Shown here: piece after piece, positions 42,073 through 48,373 of the stretch
How the letters are laid out: every line of letters begins with the position of its first letter
Numbering within the stretch: position 1 is the first letter of the stretch
Origin: Patescibacteria group bacterium
GTDB taxonomy: Bacteria > Patescibacteriota > Minisyncoccia > Moranbacterales > SCTJ01
Assembly: GCA_004297805.1 (NCBI GenBank)
Contig: SCTJ01000052.1
Location: 1-48,375 of the forward strand
Direction of reading: 5' to 3'
DNA length: 48,375 nt
Translations under genes and position numbers: made by a program
The notes under the pieces: generated by a model
Seen by the model: the letters and a program-made list of their open reading frames with translations, nothing else
Databases searched by the model: none
Told to the model about the DNA's origin: nothing

Positions 42073-42711
42073 TTAGTCGTTACGAATATTGTTTAATTTC
42101 TTCCTAGCAATAATCCTGATCCAGTGGGTGTCTTTTCTGCCCCCATCATCCTTGCGTAAACTCGAATATAACACCTCATAGCCCTCATTCTTCAGTATTT
42201 TTTCGAGCTCACCTTCTGAAAAATAGACAAACCATCTTTTCTCTTCGGAAAGTTTATCTTTTTTGTAGGAGGTTCCCTTACCCTTTTTGACCTGAATGAA
42301 AATAACACCTCCCGGCCTCAAAACTTTGTGAATATTTCTGAGAACGTTTGGGATATCCTTTTTTGAAATATGCAACAATACCGCCGAAGCCCAAACCCCA
42401 TCGAAAGAGTTAACAGGAAGCTTCAGCTGAAGCAAATCCATCTTTTTGAACCTCGCTTCTGGAACATTCTTTCTAGCTTGTCTCAAAAAGGTATCGACCA
42501 AATCAATACCTGTAACTCTGAATCCTTTTCCGGCAAACCTTTTGCTGTCTCTGCCACCCGCGCAACCAATATCCAATACCGACCCCTTCCTTGGCAGCAA
42601 TTTAGCAAAATCCAAAAATTCGCTAGGCATTAGACCCTCAATTACCTTTAGATAGGCGCTTCCCATCCTTGAATACGCTTTGATTGTATTGGCATGTTTG
42701 TCGCCTTCCAT
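42073..42711 (-). CDS. Class I SAM-dependent methyltransferase
   Basis: Motif I VLDIGCAGGRDS, motif post-I GIDL, and SFDGVWASAVLLH. Its stop abuts the EamA start. Confidence 0.85.
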   Translation of the reverse strand: MEGDKHANTIKAYSRMGSAYLKVIEGLMPSEFLDFAKLLPRKGSVLDIGCAGGRDSKRFAGKGFRVTGIDLVDTFLRQARKNVPEARFKKMDLLQLKLPVNSFDGVWASAVLLHISKKDIPNVLRNIHKVLRPGGVIFIQVKKGKGTSYKKDKLSEEKRWFVYFSEGELEKILKNEGYEVLYSSLRKDDGGRKDTHWIRIIARKKLNNIRND

Positions 42712-42714
42712 ACT

Positions 42715-42820
42715 CCCATCATATCAAAAAACCCCTGCCGGAGCGAGGGTGGAAGAATTACGTAATTTTTATCCACCTCAGGTGGAAATTACGTAATTGT
42801 TTACGTAGATATGAACGTAG
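42715..42820. repeat. Promoter-module repeat, copy b
   Basis: CCCATCATATCAAAAAACCCCTGCCGGAGCGAGGGTGGaAGAaTTACGTAATT...TTTACGTAGATATGAACGTAG. It matches 43492-43566 with 2 mismatches plus a 31-nt internal duplication. The minus strand reads TGATATGAT at 42718-42726. Confidence 0.9.
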
Positions 42821-42858: not shown

Positions 42859-43458
42859 TTATTTATTCAAAATCAATTTATTCCAATTTGGTCTTGGCAA
42901 AACAGCTTTTGACCCTGCCTTGCACATCGGACAATCAGACTCAGGATATAGATTTCCTTTTTCAGCTATTGCCGATACAATCTCTAAGTCTAATAATGTT
43001 TTGGCTCCAGAGAAATTACCAATTGTGAATATCGGCGATTGAACTTTTGCACCTAATCCATCCAGGATTTTAATCGTTTTTTTGATGCTCCCGCCAGAAT
43101 AGATATCATCACCTACTACAGTAACCACGTCCCCCTTTCTGATATCGAAATCACATGTTTCGGTTTTTGTATCCGCATATCCAAATTTAGCACCAATCTG
43201 TCTTGCCAGCGCATATGCGATAGCTAGACCAAATGGCGGATATGAAATTACCCAATCTGGTTGTATATTTCTCAACCCAAGTTCCTTGGAAAAAATGTTC
43301 TTTACTATATTCTCAATCAAAGGAACATCTGAAACCACATAATCAGTATTCAAATATAAATCTGAATGCATCCCACTTTCTGATGTCTGAACATGGAACT
43401 TGGAATGATCGTACTTCCATATCGCCTTATCATTTATCATTTCAGGAATGGTTTTCAT
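42859..43458 (-). CDS. Phosphoribosyltransferase family protein
   Basis: PRPP-binding loop VVTVVGDDIYSGGSIKKT. 199 aa with a C-terminal CPMC. Confidence 0.75.
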   Translation of the reverse strand: MKTIPEMINDKAIWKYDHSKFHVQTSESGMHSDLYLNTDYVVSDVPLIENIVKNIFSKELGLRNIQPDWVISYPPFGLAIAYALARQIGAKFGYADTKTETCDFDIRKGDVVTVVGDDIYSGGSIKKTIKILDGLGAKVQSPIFTIGNFSGAKTLLDLEIVSAIAEKGNLYPESDCPMCKAGSKAVLPRPNWNKLILNK

Positions 43459-43491
43459 AAATTGTTAGGTTAAACATTACGCCGTCATAAG

Positions 43492-43576
43492 CCCATCATA
43501 TCAAAAAACCCCTGCCGGAGCGAGGGTGGGAGAGTTACGTAATTATTTACGTAGATATGAACGTAGTCCGGAACGT
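43492..43576. repeat. Promoter-module repeat, copy c, with 12-nt phased ACGT cores
   Basis: Same sequence as copy b. ACGT cores lie at 43537, 43549, 43561 and 43573. The minus strand reads TGATATGAT at 43495-43503. Confidence 0.9.
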
Positions 43577-43640
43577 ACCTAAAAATCGCAGGGCGATGTT
43601 AGCTCTTGGGGCAATAAAGTCCAGTCTAATTACCCACTGG

Positions 43641-43668
43641 TTGCCCACTCTTGCTTTTGTGCTATAAT
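43641..43668 (+). promoter_or_regulatory. Sigma-70-like promoter of the PD-(D/E)xK gene
   Basis: TTGCCC, a 16-nt spacer ending in TGC, then TATAAT. The extended -10 reads TGCTATAAT at 43660-43668. Confidence 0.6.
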
Positions 43669-43690
43669 TTCAATAGAAGTAAAAATACAA

Positions 43691-44380
43691 ATGTATATGA
43701 CTGAAAAAACCTTTGTAAACAAATTGGAGAGCATTTTGGTTAAAGAAGGTTACTTCTCAAAGAGAGAAATTGGTGTGGGATACGGCATAGCCGATTTAGT
43801 TATAGTGAAGCAAAATTCTTTCAATATAGACAATTGTAAAAAAAGGAGGGGCTACGGTCAATTTTCCAAACTACTAAGTGAGGAATATTTTAAGGTACTT
43901 GAACAATTGCCCGATTTTGAAAAAAAAGTGAGCAAGGTTGATTTAAATTTTTTGATTGAGAAAACCAGCTTATCAAAAAATTATCTCAAATACACTATCC
44001 TAAAAGACCTGCAAAAAAAACGCTTCATAAAAGTGACCAGCGAAGGAACTTATTTTAAGGTTAACGGATGGGTGCCAATCGTTAAGGAGGTAATTGCGAT
44101 TGAGGCAAAACTGAAAGACTGGAAAAGAGGATTTATTCAAGCGAATCGGTATAAAGCGTTTGCGGATAAGGCTTATTTGGCAATCCCTAAAGAAGCGGAG
44201 CATCTGGTTAATAAGGAATTGCTTAAAAAACACGGTATTGGCCTCATAGTGCTTGATACAGCATCAAACATGAAAAAAATTACTTTACCCGCAAAAAAAG
44301 AAAAGCCTCTCAACTTGTGTAAGAGGAATTTCGCGATAGAACACTTTTGGTGCAATAAATACTTAAAACAAGTTGCCTGA
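43691..44380 (+). CDS. PD-(D/E)xK nuclease-fold protein with inserted wHTH-like segment
   Basis: GIADLVIV (D) and VIAIEAKLKDW (ExK) followed by QANRY. The roughly 100-aa insert looks like a winged helix. Confidence 0.55.
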   Translation: MYMTEKTFVNKLESILVKEGYFSKREIGVGYGIADLVIVKQNSFNIDNCKKRRGYGQFSKLLSEEYFKVLEQLPDFEKKVSKVDLNFLIEKTSLSKNYLKYTILKDLQKKRFIKVTSEGTYFKVNGWVPIVKEVIAIEAKLKDWKRGFIQANRYKAFADKAYLAIPKEAEHLVNKELLKKHGIGLIVLDTASNMKKITLPAKKEKPLNLCKRNFAIEHFWCNKYLKQVA

Positions 44381-44827
44381 GCTTATCTTGGAGAAGCTAT
44401 CCAAAAACTTAGACGGTTCGACAACCCTAATATCTTCAAACTTCTTCACTTCCAGAACAGCCTTGTCGCCTGTTATGATTATTTTCGCCCCGCATGATTT
44501 GGCTATCTTAAAATAACAATCGTCGTCGGGGTCTTTTTTTACCACGTTCACATTTTCAAGAATCCCTTTCGTATCCATGATATTAACAATCGCTTTGTAA
44601 TCCAAAATTATTTTTTCTGGCGTAAATATCTGTTTTTTCCAATATTTTGAAAATTTTGGCATCATGACTTTTTCACAAAACTCATCGTAAGTTTCCTTGC
44701 TACCATACATAACAACCTTCTTCGCCAGTGCCAAGTTTAATATTTGCCTCGTTCTTGATTGGGAATGACTCAGCATTCCAGATAGCAATAAGTTTGCGTC
44801 AGGTACAATTTTTATCATCGTCTTCAT
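44363..44827 (-). CDS. PIN domain nuclease (PIN_3 / TIGR00305-like toxin family)
   Basis: IVPDANLLLSGML, YDEF, KKDPDDDCYFKIAKSCGAKIIITGDKAVL give the acidic quartet pattern. Its ATG overlaps the upstream stop as ATGA. Confidence 0.8.
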   Translation of the reverse strand: MKTMIKIVPDANLLLSGMLSHSQSRTRQILNLALAKKVVMYGSKETYDEFCEKVMMPKFSKYWKKQIFTPEKIILDYKAIVNIMDTKGILENVNVVKKDPDDDCYFKIAKSCGAKIIITGDKAVLEVKKFEDIRVVEPSKFLDSFSKISSGNLF

Positions 44828-45999
44828 TTTTCTAAATCTTGAAGTAGCTTGTCCAATTCATCGTCATCCTTTTCATAGCTCCAATTTTTCGCCAATTGCA
44901 ATACGTTCAACCAACGTTTGAGATGAATGGTTTTCAGGTCAATTGCGAATTTCCTATTGTAAGTCTCAGCCAGTTTAATAGCCTTCGTAAGTTTTTCTTC
45001 CATCAGTGCTATTTTTTGCGGTCTATCAAGTTTACTGAGCGCATCCATAATTTCCATTTTACGGTGAACGAAATGCTGTTTTTTAGCTTGCTCACCTACT
45101 GGAAACGAACCCTGACAGGCAGCACAACTACACTTATAACCTATCTTTTTTACTATTTCATCATTAACCTTGTCGAAAACCTCTGGGATATACGTTTTTT
45201 TAACCTTGTTTGACCATCCCTGAGGGCTTTTCTCTAAATTTTTAACTACCAACGACTCTCCATCGCCTAATCCGCTAGAAAAACCAGTCAACCCTATTGA
45301 ACTAATAATCTCTCCGAAGGGCCCAATTCGCTGAATGATGACGTTTTTTCCTTCGGAAAGCTGAAACGACATGTATGCCAGCCCGCCCAGCGTATCTTCT
45401 GTAGCATTCTTGCAGTCCAGTTCATCAAATGATATGAAGTATCCTCCTATCTTGTCAGAAAAATCATCCCTGTAGCGGTCTACAATATAATTAACTATGC
45501 TTGGCCTGCACAAAACGTTATTCCCAATCTGTATTTTCACAAAGATAGGCTTATCAATACCTTTTTCTTCAACATATCTTATTGTTTCAGCAATCATGGA
45601 AATATTAATTCCGAATTTAATATCATCCGTATCCATTGCGAAGAAATACGGAGCTATTATGATATCAGCTCCCATCTTAACCTGATTGTCCACTGCTGGA
45701 ATGATTACGTTTTCTCTTCTGAAACTAGAATCACTGTATATTTTTTCAGGTTGAACATCAGCCGGATATGATAGCTTCTTGAAATTTTCCTTTCCCTTCG
45801 CCTCATTAAACAGCATGCAGTGCGTTGACGGGTCAACAATAAATACGCCTGCTGACTCTTTGACTTTTTTTGCAGCCTTCGGCCTCCATATAACATGAGA
45901 GGCATCCATCAAAACTGCTGGAAAAGAAAAACCAGCCTCAAAAATTTTTTGGTCTTGAAGTTTAGGAATAAATATTGGTTCTTTCTCAAATATAGCCAT
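44824..45999 (-). CDS. Hypothetical enzyme with TGT/DpdA-like CxCxxC...H zinc motif
   Basis: 391 aa from the ATG at 45997-45999. CSCAAC is encoded at 45115-45132, followed by HFVH 14-17 residues later. The motif sits in the C-terminal quarter, as in tRNA-guanine transglycosylase superfamily proteins. Alternating strand/helix pattern upstream. Confidence 0.4.
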   Translation of the reverse strand: MAIFEKEPIFIPKLQDQKIFEAGFSFPAVLMDASHVIWRPKAAKKVKESAGVFIVDPSTHCMLFNEAKGKENFKKLSYPADVQPEKIYSDSSFRRENVIIPAVDNQVKMGADIIIAPYFFAMDTDDIKFGINISMIAETIRYVEEKGIDKPIFVKIQIGNNVLCRPSIVNYIVDRYRDDFSDKIGGYFISFDELDCKNATEDTLGGLAYMSFQLSEGKNVIIQRIGPFGEIISSIGLTGFSSGLGDGESLVVKNLEKSPQGWSNKVKKTYIPEVFDKVNDEIVKKIGYKCSCAACQGSFPVGEQAKKQHFVHRKMEIMDALSKLDRPQKIALMEEKLTKAIKLAETYNRKFAIDLKTIHLKRWLNVLQLAKNWSYEKDDDELDKLLQDLEK

Positions 46000-46106
46000 T
46001 TTTTTATTTGGGTTTCTATTATATGGGAAAAAATAAGTCAACAAGTATATTGAGTCTATCACTAATGATAGTTGCTGTAAATGGAGCGGAGCGGAGTAAA
46101 CCACGC

Positions 46107-46560
46107 AAAAAACGCCCTTGTGAGGCGTCCCTGCGTATGCTCAAGCAAAAGTAATAAGTATCACAACCTATTGCGATTCCCCAATCCCTTGCGAGATTAG
46201 GGCCGTTAGCCCTCGCTAACGGAGTCCTTAAGAGTCTATCCGTACCCTTGTACAAAAGGTACTAGCAGTATTCGCACTGCTGGACTAGCTGTTGCCTACC
46301 GAAGTAGGTTCGACCAGCGGATAACTACCAATGCTCTCCATTATGCCCTATGAGGGGCGTAACTTCTACTAGAGTGCATTTCTCGGTAGCTATCAATTTC
46401 TCCCTAGAAAGGAGGTGATTCGTGGGAAGAATCAGAGAAATGCTTTTGTAAAAGTCCGAGTAGTGTCATTTTACTCCCTAGAAATACTGCAAAGGTGGGA
46501 GTTATAGACAAAATAAAGAGGCAGATTGCTCCACCTCTAGTTAGAACCGTGTCCCTTAGA
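46107..46560 (-). ncRNA. Candidate structured RNA of unknown class (about 450 nt)
   Basis: ORF-poor and GC-richer than the flanks. The minus-strand orientation gives CCTAC-UUCG-GUAGG, a 10-bp stem capped by GCAA, and CCGTTAGC-gagg-GCTAACGG. It also gives a 9-bp long-range pair GCATTTCTC/GAGAAATGC and a terminal hairpin plus T6 (46107-46128). Confidence 0.45.
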
Positions 46561-46728
46561 TTACCCTATCTTTGAAGCCAATGCTTTGGCACTCTCAGCA
46601 AGAGCGTTATACTCAGCCTTGTATTCTGCTGGGATTTCTCCCTTCTGAAAACCGAAACAAACTCCACCTTCAAGCATTACGCTTATGCCCAGACACTCCT
46701 TGTTTTTGTGCTCTTCAGTTATTTTCAC
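46561..46728 (-). CDS. Small hypothetical protein (55 aa from GTG)
   Basis: GTG at 46726-46728 lies 6 nt after AAGGAG. Sequence KITEEHKNKECLGISVMLEGGVCFGFQKGE... No family recognised. Confidence 0.4.
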   Translation of the reverse strand: MKITEEHKNKECLGISVMLEGGVCFGFQKGEIPAEYKAEYNALAESAKALASKIG

Positions 46729-47594: not shown

Positions 47595-47603
47595 TGCTAT
47601 AAT
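47595..47603 (+). promoter_or_regulatory. Perfect extended -10 (TGCTATAAT) on plus strand
   Basis: It has no downstream plus-strand CDS. It is back to back with the peptide B promoter. Confidence 0.55.
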
Positions 47604-47609
47604 ATATCT

Positions 47610-47792
47610 GGAATAGTGAGAGTTGGTGTTTTTCAGTCTTTGACTGGAAACAGTGCTGTGTAATAAGTCCGCCATCCGCCTTGTGCGGTGGATTTGTCCG
47701 AAAGGACGAAAGGTGCGGTTAAAAGCGTCATTGGTTTACGGATGCACCAAGAGTGCTATTCCAACAAAGGACTTCCCTCGTGGGAGTTTTTT
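47610..47792 (+). ncRNA. Candidate sRNA (about 180 nt) between promoter and terminator
   Basis: The predicted 5-prime GGAATAG..TTGGTG pairs with the 3-prime CACCAA..CTATTCC. Internal hairpins include GTCC-GAAA-GGAC. The RNA ends with CTTCCC-tcgt-GGGAG plus T6 (47772-47792). Confidence 0.4.
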
Positions 47793-47806
47793 GTTTTATC
47801 TCAGGT

Positions 47807-48373
47807 CTATCCGAAATAATTTTCCACCGCAAATTCAAACTGTTTCAAAAACAGCTCCTTAAAATACGAGATATTGTTTTGCTCGTAAAACAACAGCATC
47901 GCCTTTTTGTATTCGCCTTCGTCCATACTGCGGTAAGAAAGAGGGCAGGAATCAAAAGATTGCAAAATGGCATTACCACCCAATCGACTGGTTCTTTTAT
48001 TGCCATCTACGAATGGTTGAATATAAGCAATGAGTAGCATTAAAATAATAGATTTTTCAAAAACATCATTAGTTTCGTTTACCAGTTTGCAAGTTTTTTC
48101 TAAGGCTTCTTTTATTTGAAACTCATTGTCCAATGGCTTGTAGTTTGTGCCAGTTATTCCAACAAGCGTTTTTCTCAAGTTTTTTGTCACGTTCAAACCA
48201 TCCACCAGCAAGGAATGGATATTTTCTATCTTGGCAACGGATATAGATTGAAATTCATTTTTATTGCTACCAATATATTCCAATGTTTTCTTATGGTTGA
48301 GAATCATAGTCGCCTCTTCCTTGGTATGCCCTGATGCTTCTTGTTGGTTTTTAATCAATTGCTCTGTCTCCAA
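47807..48373 (-). CDS. Fic/Doc family protein, 5-prime partial at window edge, non-canonical motif
   Basis: The motif IQPFVDGNKRTSR (47984-48019) corresponds to HxFx(D/E)GN(G/K)R with Gln in place of the catalytic His. The ORF runs off the window. Confidence 0.65.
   Translation of the reverse strand: METEQLIKNQQEASGHTKEEATMILNHKKTLEYIGSNKNEFQSISVAKIENIHSLLVDGLNVTKNLRKTLVGITGTNYKPLDNEFQIKEALEKTCKLVNETNDVFEKSIILMLLIAYIQPFVDGNKRTSRLGGNAILQSFDSCPLSYRSMDEGEYKKAMLLFYEQNNISYFKELFLKQFEFAVENYFG

Follow-up and report, generated by a model that had tools for sequence, protein, structure and literature searches.

The window analyzed here, that is, the whole stretch of 48,375 nt, raises the question of what lies between the terminator of an unrelated small-gene operon and the promoter region of a three-gene module encoding a TGT-like protein (391 aa), a PIN protein, and a 229-aa protein. 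Positions 46104-46560 contain no credible ORF, fold much better on the minus strand than on the plus strand, and match no Rfam family. The original prediction interpreted this region as a candidate RNA of about 450 nt that might be a dedicated component or a cis-regulator of the TGT-like/PIN genes.

The ORF-free region and its minus-strand fold

The minus strand of 46100-46565 has a minimum free energy of -160.9 kcal/mol, compared to -130.5 +/- 6.3 kcal/mol for dinucleotide shuffles (z -4.8, with none of 100 shuffles as good), whereas the plus strand of the same region reaches z -2.8. About 6-7 G-U pairs within the helices are possible on the minus strand only. This asymmetry, together with the covariation described below, upholds the reading of the region as a structured RNA of the minus strand, and all eight hairpins and helices originally listed are present in the sequence where they had been placed. 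The absence of ORFs also holds: the longest ORF inside the hairpin-rich region is at most 35 aa, and a 78-aa ORF with a TTG start (46019-46255), which overlaps the 3' end of the element, has no homologue among 5.8 billion proteins. We consider this ORF spurious; its protein search, aimed at miscalled ORFs over homologous RNAs, returned nothing. The proposed GC enrichment is real with respect to the surrounding island (0.48-0.51 across 46075-46374 versus 0.27-0.44) and is modest overall, because the same value is close to the contig mean of 0.46.

Scanning the entire window with the Rfam covariance models produced no match at the gathering score, in line with the initial impression that no known RNA signature fits. 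At E values up to 10, only chance-level matches appeared, and the sole weak one, to RNAI (E 0.13), covers the terminator hairpin alone; the T-box, riboswitch, and group I/II intron families were among those without a match. ARAGORN detected no tmRNA in the window. Inspection by eye also led us to reject RNase P, tmRNA, a group I intron core, a tRNA-like element, and a CRISPR repeat as candidates, with no model match and with R/S-like motifs in the wrong order. A type III toxin-antitoxin RNA (ToxI-like, with tandem repeats of ~36 nt) was likewise discarded, given a single direct repeat of 11-14 nt, 74 nt apart, and no array.

The upstream boundary of the RNA could be located through synteny of the 94-aa membrane-protein gene: likeness to the window ends at 46510, and no RNA is found there. 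Indeed, 46510-46557 is 83% identical to the sequence immediately 3' of the 94-aa gene in another locus (L019), where the gene has the same terminator right behind it. Thus, of the predicted ~450 nt, the conserved element 46419-46104 stands, and 46560-46510 falls outside the RNA.

Homologues behind 16S rRNA genes

A metagenome scan with one 22-nt pattern identified nine loci homologous to 46419-46104, with 62-87% identity (alignment A1). Blastn aligned 46419-46100 of the window to all nine, and a profile nhmmer search gave E 4e-90. The sample comprises 10 sequences (9 distinct), every one found via that single 22-mer. In 8 out of the 9 homologues, the 3' end of 16S rRNA (...GGAUGGAUCACCUCCUUUCU) abuts the element by alignment, with Rfam placing SSU rRNA directly 5' of it in six loci, and the end of the element in these eight loci is an intrinsic terminator. 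The trailers measure about 310-355 nt, and there is no LSU rRNA (23S) gene in the 3-8 kb downstream of the four longest loci (L030, L031, L032, and L035). The 16S gene directly upstream, combined with the lack of a nearby 23S gene, identifies the element as the 3' trailer of an unlinked 16S operon. Unlinked rRNA genes have been reported to be common in Patescibacteria (bioRxiv 10.1101/705046). The ninth homologue, L027, is preceded by a tRNA-synthetase gene rather than 16S, and the window copy does not directly follow a 16S gene either. With 16S reduced to its last 14 nt and no SSU match anywhere on the contig, the window copy is homologous to trailers and yet is no gene's own trailer. Hence, although Rfam returned no housekeeping RNA, the outcome that the original prediction had set against itself, a 16S-operon spacer carrying a 16S end amounts to much the same in spirit. 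We consider it likely that the minus strand of 46419-46104 carries a now detached copy of the 3' trailer that belongs to the unlinked 16S rRNA operon in this Patescibacteria clade. The features of the element and its flanks are as follows.

46104-46419, minus strand: conserved element of 316 nt, likely orphan copy of a 16S rRNA 3' trailer (3' external transcribed spacer); homologous to nine loci
46406-46419, minus strand: last 14 nt of mature 16S rRNA, AUCACCUCCUUUCU, with the anti-Shine-Dalgarno (anti-SD) CCUCC; identical to the 16S 3' ends in L028-L035
46400-46414, minus strand: hairpin CUCCUU/AGGGAG of the anti-SD with an SD-like sequence at the trailer start (helix 1); invariant in 10/10 sequences
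46320-46394, minus strand: long composite stem (helices 2-4), GAUAGCUACC/GGUAGUUAUC, AAUGCACUCU/GGAGAGCAUU, and an apical variable hairpin; compensatory changes in 14/29 pairs
46288-46318, minus strand: GCUG/CAGC stem around the hairpin CCUAC-UUCG-GUAGG (helices 5-6); double changes in 6/7 hairpin pairs
46242-46281, minus strand: variable hairpins AGCAGU-GCGAAU-ACUGCU and GUACCUUU-UGUAC-AAGGGUAC (helices 7-8); compensatory changes in 3/4 and 5/8 pairs
46223-46240, minus strand: GAUAGACUCU and AGGACU, leader-pairing segments in 16S-linked homologues; from cofolding in L030 and L031
46203-46222, minus strand: hairpin CCGUUAGC-GAGG-GCUAACGG (helix 10); covariation in 4/8 pairs
46153-46203, minus strand: 51-nt invariant block, hairpin CCCUAAUCUC-GCAA-GGGAUUGGGG plus AAUCGCAAUAGGUUGUGAU (outer leader-pairing segment); identical in 10/10 sequences, with 22 of the 51 nt being the search pattern, so that identity there is by construction
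46104-46135, minus strand: intrinsic terminator, stem CGCAGGGACGCC/GGCGUUUUUUGCG plus U6 run (helix 13); conserved in 10/10 sequences
46420-46470, minus strand: linker that joins the orphan-specific motif to the remnant of the 16S end, with the window-only hairpin UGAUUC/GAAUCA; aligns weakly to L027
46471-46503, minus strand: 33-nt orphan-specific motif AACUCCCACCUUUGCAGUAUUUCUAGGGAGUAA; 27/33 nt identical to L027 10491-10523
46517-46538, minus strand: intrinsic terminator of the upstream 94-aa/55-aa operon, outside the RNA; from a terminator scan

RNAalifold predicted 107 pairs, 34 of which show compensatory changes. Across the 99 tested pairs, 98.1% of cells are paired, and the 34 pairs with double changes compare with 13.8 +/- 2.2 in shuffles (0/500 reach 34) and with 3-9 in slid-alignment controls; covariation, proposed at the outset as a check, thus backs the structure. 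The pairing of the CCUAC-UUCG-GUAGG stem is kept between lineages despite wholly different sequence, and in L027 the stem of helix 10 has been remodelled with all pairs preserved. Helix 13 displays one compensatory pair and six one-sided changes, and helix 1, being invariant in all 10 sequences, lies beyond covariation testing. The terminal hairpin with its U6 run, correctly taken to mark the end of the RNA, is the intrinsic terminator; in L030, similar terminators occur at other sites too. Some of the proposed structures had to be revised. The possible pseudoknot UAGCUACC/GGUAGUUA turned out to be an ordinary nested helix within the composite stem, three of its pairs covarying. The UGAUUC/GAAUCA hairpin and the 9-bp helix GCAUUUCUC/GAGAAAUGC are present and confined to the window copy, the latter competing with the conserved, covarying helix AAUGCACUCU/GGAGAGCAUU.

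In the two loci with a complete 16S gene, L030 and L031, the trailer is complementary to the 16S leader. Cofolding gave -114.5 kcal/mol for L030, versus -86.5 +/- 4.9 with a shuffled leader, and -128.6 versus -95.0 +/- 5.2 for L031, an advantage of 5-6 standard deviations. The register common to both joins the leader UUGCGAUU-AGUCCU-[hairpin]-AGAGUCUAU with the trailer AUAGACUCU-AGGACU-[two hairpins]-AAUCGCAA, amounting to about 26-42 predicted pairs broken by hairpins. In Escherichia coli, the leader-trailer helix is an RNase III substrate and is required for 30S biogenesis (PMC10250234). By its predicted pairing, the 3' part of the trailer would be one strand of such a classic processing helix. 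Every leader-pairing segment of the trailer strand is intact in the window and L027; the 48-kb window contains no complementary or leader-like sequence that could provide the leader strand.

In the relatives, the element would be transcribed as the tail of the 16S precursor, beginning straight after the mature 3' end. The SD-like AGGGAG would pair with the anti-SD tail, presumably masking it, and would be followed by several hairpins that vary by lineage and are predicted always to be paired. The 3' part would then supply the trailer strand of the helix bracketing 16S, and the transcript would stop at the intrinsic terminator of the operon.

The adjacent three-gene module

The position of the element immediately upstream of the TGT-like/PIN operon, on the same strand, with a terminator hairpin ~105 nt before the start codon that could in principle act as an attenuator, is what suggested a dedicated RNA component or a large cis-regulatory leader. 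Comparative data speak strongly against it. Homologues of the module exist at 41-76% protein identity, and nine homologous module loci lack the RNA; in one of them, the upstream gap is just 125 nt, and likeness of the module loci to the window ends at 46002. These nine loci (L001-L009) are the contexts of three module homologues (76, 47, and 48% identity), and in them the three genes are kept with no RNA-like sequence upstream. Conversely, the module is missing downstream of all nine RNA homologues, although it had been anticipated that they might always flank it, and the genes downstream of them differ from those in the window. Furthermore, a promoter-like site (46081-46053) lies between the terminator of the element and the TGT-like gene. 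A role of the RNA in the operon is therefore highly improbable. The module is mobile and has no specific relation to the RNA element, so it should be studied as a protein-only system; the "TGT-like" label for its 391-aa product is reasonable at the fold level.

Several observations concern the neighborhood itself. In one module locus (L001), integrases accompany the three genes, and the flanking DNA in the window has low G+C and carries Fic and toxin-like genes. No att-type direct repeats were found around the three-gene module or in L035. A decayed pseudogene of the DUF6602 gene that occupies the same relative position in L001 was considered, and tblastn found nothing. Repeats around the PRTase gene, considered as attC sites, look instead like a duplicated promoter/operator region, and PRTase synteny across GTDB genomes recovered no RNA, just PRTase homologues from DPANN archaea as well as other phyla. 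Searching for exact copies of the 63-, 55-, and 94-aa products yielded no record. The RNA matched neither phage DNA in a dedicated search nor viral contigs scanned with 21-25-mers.

Two detached copies and their proposed origin

The orphan status of the window copy follows from the 14 nt of 16S that precede it, AUCACCUCCUUUCU, the only 16S sequence in the window, and from a contig lacking both a 16S gene and a leader; the sequence breaks off 1.9 kb upstream of the element, and a 16S gene may lie farther away. L027, from an independent JGI assembly, is a second orphan copy with the same junction and the same 33-nt motif, and its 10 kb upstream hold a tRNA-synthetase gene, a PLP decarboxylase gene, and a tRNA, with no 16S. 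In local alignment of the window and L027, the motif scores 41, compared to 14.7 +/- 2.2 for shuffles (0/1000 as high). It is absent from the 16S-linked loci and, judging from its sequence, resembles a second, diverged version of the junction at which the 16S end meets the trailer start. Likeness between the two orphan loci ends about 85 nt upstream of the element.

Both orphan copies look constrained at the sequence level, unlike a dead relic. On the window branch, 2 of the 13 polarised changes fall in the 204 columns invariant among linked copies, where 8.9 were expected (P about 1e-4). Noncanonical pairs are as few (3/91) in the window copy as in its linked sister L035, and all six changes in paired columns of L027 preserve pairing. 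The trailer bodies, however, are 87% identical between the window and L035, 88% between L027 and L028, and only 64% between the window and L027, so that each orphan is nearer to a 16S-linked copy than to the other orphan. Constraint together with the common upstream motif fits an old maintained paralogue, gene conversion, or recurrent insertion better than a one-off deletion.

These features invite the suggestion that the orphan has become an independent, working RNA gene that arose from the 16S trailer. It would have its own promoter in the 85-nt upstream segment and would act in trans, for instance by pairing with a 16S leader, by sequestering RNase III or some other processing factor through titration, or by means of the anti-SD that it keeps sequestered. 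Consistent with it, two independently assembled orphans share the junction and a significant motif, terminators bracket the unit in both, the changes on the window branch avoid conserved columns, pairing persists through every paired-column change in L027, and the leader-pairing segments are whole. Nevertheless, just two orphan copies are known, and their polyphyletic trailer bodies could, without any function, stem from gene conversion by a linked copy or from separate origins in the recent past. The upstream segment, moreover, shows no significant similarity to the 110 nt before the element in five linked loci and aligns weakly to the complete 16S leaders of L030 and L031. That it carries the 16S promoter was rejected, the string in common with these leaders being ~10 nt (CTTTGCAGT.AT) and not significant, as was derivation from the 16S last exon or a group I intron 3' end, for which alignment scores were at shuffle level; for the linker 46420-46470, neither the 16S last exon nor intron ends gave a significant match. 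A consensus sigma-70 scan found no promoter for the window copy, which says little, because it found none upstream of the real 16S in L030 and one chance-level match in L031. We regard a working gene as possible, though unlikely. More doubtful still is the broader proposal that orphan 16S trailers in a Patescibacteria clade constitute a maintained class of stand-alone, spacer-derived RNAs (~400 nt, anti-SD tail plus trailer strand) that would influence, in trans, the maturation of 16S precursors or the enzymes that process them.

Site-specific integration of islands happens at tRNA and tmRNA genes, and the orphan could be a displaced att-side fragment left by an island that integrated into the 3' end of the 16S operon, in which case an intact 16S would lie past the contig end, upstream of the low-GC island (Fic, 106-aa, 94-aa, and 55-aa genes). 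The element begins 14 nt before the 16S 3' end, the diverged second copy of the junction lies ~70 nt upstream (46503-46471), and the low-G+C flanks with Fic and toxin-like genes, as well as the integrases with the module in L001, accord with such an origin. In L035, the closest relative (87%), an SMC/AAA ATPase and a phage integrase come after the trailer, and islands appear to accumulate in these genomes at the 3' flank of the 16S operon. Against this stand the lack of an integrase and of a full-length direct repeat of the junction in the window, the lack of 16S in the 10 kb upstream of L027, and the likeness of the orphan loci stopping ~85 nt upstream, unlike the arm of a common element. An att-side fragment is rather improbable on this balance.

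An assembly artefact, in which a trailer repeated between strains or loci joined the wrong flanks, is a slim prospect. A 100% identical Logan contig of the same run (L018) breaks off at 46182, in or next to the 51-nt block, its other end falls at a known repeat (43500), and the window trailer is a mosaic, mostly L035-like with an L028-like terminator. Yet the diagnostic junction 46420/46419, where non-16S sequence is joined to AUCACCUCC, is located over 200 nt 5' of the invariant block and recurs in the independent assembly of L027, and the window resembles L035 to either side of the block, as far as 46035. What could be doubted is at most the placement of the orphan beside the three-gene module; that the orphan exists is not in question.

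We therefore favor a detached trailer, most likely left behind or copied when the 3' end of a 16S operon was rearranged or received an insertion; in L035, the same site also adjoins an island with an integrase. Its fold and terminator are intact, and if transcribed, it would give a stable RNA of ~320-400 nt that would be unable to act in cis on a 16S precursor. A long, covariation-backed trailer of unlinked 16S operons in a Patescibacteria clade, combining a leader-trailer strand, an anti-SD-pairing hairpin, and the operon terminator, is absent from Rfam; a covariance model of it would improve genome annotation and prevent "unknown RNA" flags. The two orphans have intact structures and an upstream motif in common, and if expressed, they would represent a rare example of an rRNA spacer that became an RNA in its own right. 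A trans-acting class, if real, would mean that organisms with reduced genomes use an rRNA processing signal that is split or assisted in trans.

Among known systems, the large noncoding and housekeeping RNAs (OLE, GOLLD, ROOL, HEARO, raiA, RNase P, tmRNA, SRP, and 6S) resemble the element in size, many hairpins, GNRA and UUCG loops, and a terminator; in contrast to them, it has no covariance-model match up to E 10, and its homologues are part of 16S precursors. The partial 3' copies of tRNA and tmRNA genes at island borders are likewise short 3' pieces of a stable RNA beside low-GC, defence- and toxin-rich DNA, with a diverged junction copy near, whereas the window lacks an integrase, a full direct repeat, and an intact target, and L027 is not island-like. 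The unlinked operons of Patescibacteria, Deinococcus-Thermus, Rickettsiales, and Helicobacter share the order of 16S followed by a terminator with no near 23S; the report on them describes gene order rather than conserved trailer structure or orphan trailers (bioRxiv 10.1101/705046). A further relevant system is the pre-16S leader-trailer of E. coli (PMC10250234), to which the homologues correspond in abutting the mature 16S 3' end, in the leader complementarity of the 3' part, and in being conserved and structured. Unlike in E. coli rrn operons, the window copy comes without a 16S gene or leader, and the trailer of the homologues, rather than leading to tRNAs and 23S, ends in a terminator, because the operon is unlinked, and covers a long stretch of about 310-355 nt that includes an additional multi-hairpin domain.

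The RNA-bearing interval and its neighbours

As a chromosomal contig from a Patescibacteria MAG, the window encodes SecA, MurC, MurG, FtsW, a class II aminoacyl-tRNA synthetase and, as NCBI EPO05_03225, a 391-aa protein; G+C is lower over its last 5 kb. All hairpins listed in the original prediction of a large RNA were found on the minus strand at 46560-46104, where the fold reaches -160.9 kcal/mol (z -4.8, against z -2.8 for the plus strand, with dinucleotide shuffles as control). There is no ORF longer than 35 aa inside the RNA region, and no homologue was found for a 78-aa ORF overlapping the RNA 3' end. Rfam yielded nothing at gathering score across the whole window and chance-level matches alone at E up to 10, and ARAGORN found neither tRNA nor tmRNA; the element is in no Rfam family. 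A structured RNA occupies the predicted interval, except for the first 50 nt, which include the terminator of the upstream operon; in L019, a locus with a relative of the operon's 94-aa gene, this terminator comes directly after that gene.

Features flanking the RNA
46538-46517, intrinsic terminator (9-bp hairpin and U-run), ends the upstream operon (94-aa CBU_0592-like membrane protein and 55-aa ORF)
44824-45999, minus strand, 391-aa protein
44363-44827, minus strand, PIN_3 protein
43691-44380, plus strand, convergent protein of ~229 aa

The last three genes form a conserved module, and the RNA had been proposed as a subunit or regulator of it. That proposal fails on the contexts of the module in other bacteria: in nine out of nine loci, reached via three homologues (76, 47 and 48% protein identity) and including one with an upstream gap of just 125 nt, sequence similar to the RNA is absent upstream of the module, and the nearest relatives match the window over 43655-46002, up to the start codon. 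Which genes stand upstream varies (DUF6602, DUF4325 or a Bil-type ubiquitin-like system), and variation of this kind is characteristic of a mobile module in defence islands. On the opposite side, similarity to L019 ends at 46510. The stretch 46003-46510 is thus distinct from the modules on either side of it, each of which has relatives elsewhere.

The module itself is rare, with 14 relatives among 5.8 billion proteins, and in other phyla adjoins defence-type genes (Bil system, DUF6602, DUF4325, integrases). For the 391-aa protein, Pfam, NCBIfam and PDB gave no match at sequence level; the AlphaFold model (pLDDT 82.9) is nearest to bacterial tRNA-guanine transglycosylase (Foldseek E ~1e-6, TM ~0.5), and the protein carries a conserved CxCxxC...H motif. 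The last 5 kb look still more like a defence island because of a Fic/DOC protein (47807-48373, minus strand) that is truncated where the contig stops and hits the SoFic and PDC-S04 defence models. Non-coding 47595-47797, which separates the Fic gene from a 106-aa secreted-protein gene, is 84-89% identical to L019 3244-3514, a locus otherwise having only the 94-aa gene in common with the window; it folds weakly better than shuffles (z -1.8) and could be a conserved regulatory region or small RNA.

The 94-aa membrane protein (PF26604; 46759-47043, minus strand) has 1812 relatives, many of them 70-93% identical over unrelated phyla (Fibrobacteria, Bacteroidota, Anaerolineales, Pseudomonadota), which is more conservation than is usual in so small a membrane protein. 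Between this gene and its terminator lies the 55-aa ORF (46561-46728, minus strand), which has a good ribosome-binding site, no family match and no exact copy in the records. It is absent from L019 and L020, which encode the closest 94-aa relative (93% protein identity) and have the terminator directly after that gene; the ORF is either an insertion or a lineage-specific gene. Further along, direct repeats (42709-42820 and 43486-43578; 62 nt at 92% and 32 nt at 97% identity) lie on both sides of a PRTase-like gene (42859-43458); they contain TTACGTAA palindromes, a hairpin with T6 and a -10-like box, and look like a duplicated promoter/operator region. Homologues of the gene, 66-71% identical, are found in DPANN archaea and in several phyla of bacteria, which suggests horizontal mobility.

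A 16S rRNA trailer with a conserved fold

A Logan contig from the window's own sequencing run (L018), 100% identical to 46182-43500, stops inside the RNA beside an invariant block, and its other end, 43500, falls at the repeat that flanks the PRTase gene; both breaks fit repeats within the sample. Because the break at 46182 suggested such a repeat, metagenomes were scanned with the adjacent 22-mer CCCTAATCTCGCAAGGGATTGG, giving nine loci (L027-L035), a sample biased, through the use of one exact 22-mer, to lineages keeping that hairpin. All nine align to 46419-46100 (blastn) and are 62-87% identical to the window over an alignment of ten sequences, nine of them distinct. In four of them (L029, L031, L032 and L034) the element is preceded by ...GCCCGUCACACC...AAGUCGUAACAAGGCAUCCGUAGCGGAAGCUGUGGAUGGAUCACCUCCUUUCU, the 16S rRNA 3' end, and in four others (L028, L030, L033 and L035) by at least the last 33-45 nt of 16S, both by alignment; Rfam places SSU rRNA directly upstream in six loci. 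Four loci (L030, L031, L032 and L035) extend 3-8 kb past the element, and none of these has LSU rRNA there; each element terminates in a hairpin and U6. Collectively, the adjoining 16S end, the lack of downstream LSU rRNA and the terminator identify the element as the 3' trailer of an unlinked 16S operon, a homology that we regard as secure. Unlinked 16S operons are reported to be common in Patescibacteria (bioRxiv 10.1101/705046).

In L030 (3256-3639) and L035 (205-552), both by Rfam, and in L028, by alignment, a group I intron is located ~45 nt ahead of the 16S 3' end; that of L035 encodes a LAGLIDADG protein. The trailer's terminator module (...ACACCUUAAAUGGUGUUUUUUGCG; window 46087-46116) recurs behind unrelated genes of L030 (8487-8524 and 10708-10762), and appears to represent a terminator family shared in these genomes.

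RNAalifold on the ten sequences gives 107 pairs, 34 with compensatory changes. Over the 99 pairs of 13 helices that remain once two short unsupported helices are left out, standard pairs fill 98.1% of cells, against 89.8 +/- 0.6 in shuffles, and 34 pairs change on both sides, against 13.8 +/- 2.2 (0/500 shuffles reach 34); with partners slid by 1-3 columns, 3-9 pairs do so. Covariation supports the predicted hairpins CCUAC-UUCG-GUAGG and CCGUUAGC-GAGG-GCUAACGG and the region of AGCAGU...ACUGCU, and the terminator hairpin is conserved, with one compensatory pair and six one-sided changes. The proposed pseudoknot UAGCUACC/GGUAGUUA is a supported helix, but a nested one. UGAUUC/GAAUCA and the 9-bp helix GCAUUUCUC/GAGAAAUGC can form, but in the window alone, and the latter conflicts with a covarying helix. 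The GNRA hairpin CCCUAAUCUC/GGGAUUGGGG is invariant, hence beyond covariation, and contains the search pattern, so that 22 nt are identical by construction; the invariance of the 51-nt block at 46203-46153 is likewise partly due to the search.

Orphan copies

By homology the element is a pre-16S trailer, a class defined by its position, and in the window no 16S gene is attached. The window retains AUCACCUCCUUUCU (46419-46406) and the entire trailer; the adjoining 46420-46505 is not 16S, and the contig has no SSU match or leader-strand-like sequence anywhere. The same arrangement occurs in L027, from an independent JGI assembly, where a tRNA-synthetase gene, its terminator and ~95 nt are followed by AAUCACCUCCUUUCU and the trailer, with no 16S gene within 10 kb upstream. 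That the assembler joined the wrong flanks at the invariant block is very improbable, given that the diagnostic junction lies >200 nt upstream of the block and recurs in L027; for these reasons such an error would touch only the adjacency to the three-gene module.

Both orphans share a 33-nt motif, AACU(C/U)CCA..UU.G.AGUAUUUCUAGGGAGUAA (window 46503-46471; alignment score 41 against 14.7 +/- 2.2 shuffled, 0/1000 as high), which resembles a diverged duplicate of the junction where 16S ends and the trailer starts. In its trailer body, each orphan is closer to a 16S-linked copy than to the other orphan.

Trailer identity
Window and L035 (16S-linked), 87%
L027 and L028 (16S-linked), 88%
Window and L027, 64%

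Judged by its substitutions, the window copy does not look decayed: non-canonical pairs number 3 of 91, as many as in L035, and of 13 window-branch changes only 2 hit any of the 204 columns that do not vary among linked copies, against 8.9 expected (P ~1e-4). In L027, eight otherwise invariant positions have changed, six of them in pairs, and pairing is kept in all six. This intactness could reflect a recent event, gene conversion from a linked copy or continuing selection. A maintained stand-alone RNA acting in trans is a rival reading that we consider unlikely; promoter scans are uninformative for these organisms.

We favour a detached operon tail: a 16S operon would have been rearranged, or have received an insertion, at its 3' end. 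In L035 the trailer and the following 70 nt are as in the window and lead into genes for an SMC/AAA ATPase and a phage integrase; in the window the three-gene module follows; the 3' flank of the 16S operon appears to accumulate foreign DNA. Site-specific integration into the 16S end, leaving an att-type fragment, would accommodate the integrase gene and the repeated junction, yet it seems to us rather improbable, and detachment remains our preferred origin. What is new here is that an unlinked 16S operon can have a long trailer backed by covariation, of which the window carries an orphan copy; the orphans are of modest importance unless expressed and functional.

Pairing of leader and trailer in linked operons

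In the first helix of the element, which is invariant, AGGGAG just past the mature 16S end pairs with the anti-SD tail CUCCUU and would thereby mask the anti-SD in the precursor. For L030 and L031, the two loci that provide complete 16S genes with leaders, we cofolded the trailer's 3' part with the 160-200 nt that precede 16S.

Cofolding of leader and trailer
L030, -114.5 kcal/mol; shuffled leader -86.5 +/- 4.9
L031, -128.6 kcal/mol; shuffled leader -95.0 +/- 5.2

Both adopt a common architecture in which the leader UUGCGAUU-AGUCCU-[hairpin]-AGAGUCUAU pairs with the trailer AUAGACUCU-AGGACU-[two hairpins]-AAUCGCAA. This pairing corresponds to the helix that brackets 16S in bacterial rRNA operons, and in E. 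coli the leader-trailer helix is essential for active 30S subunits (PMC10250234).
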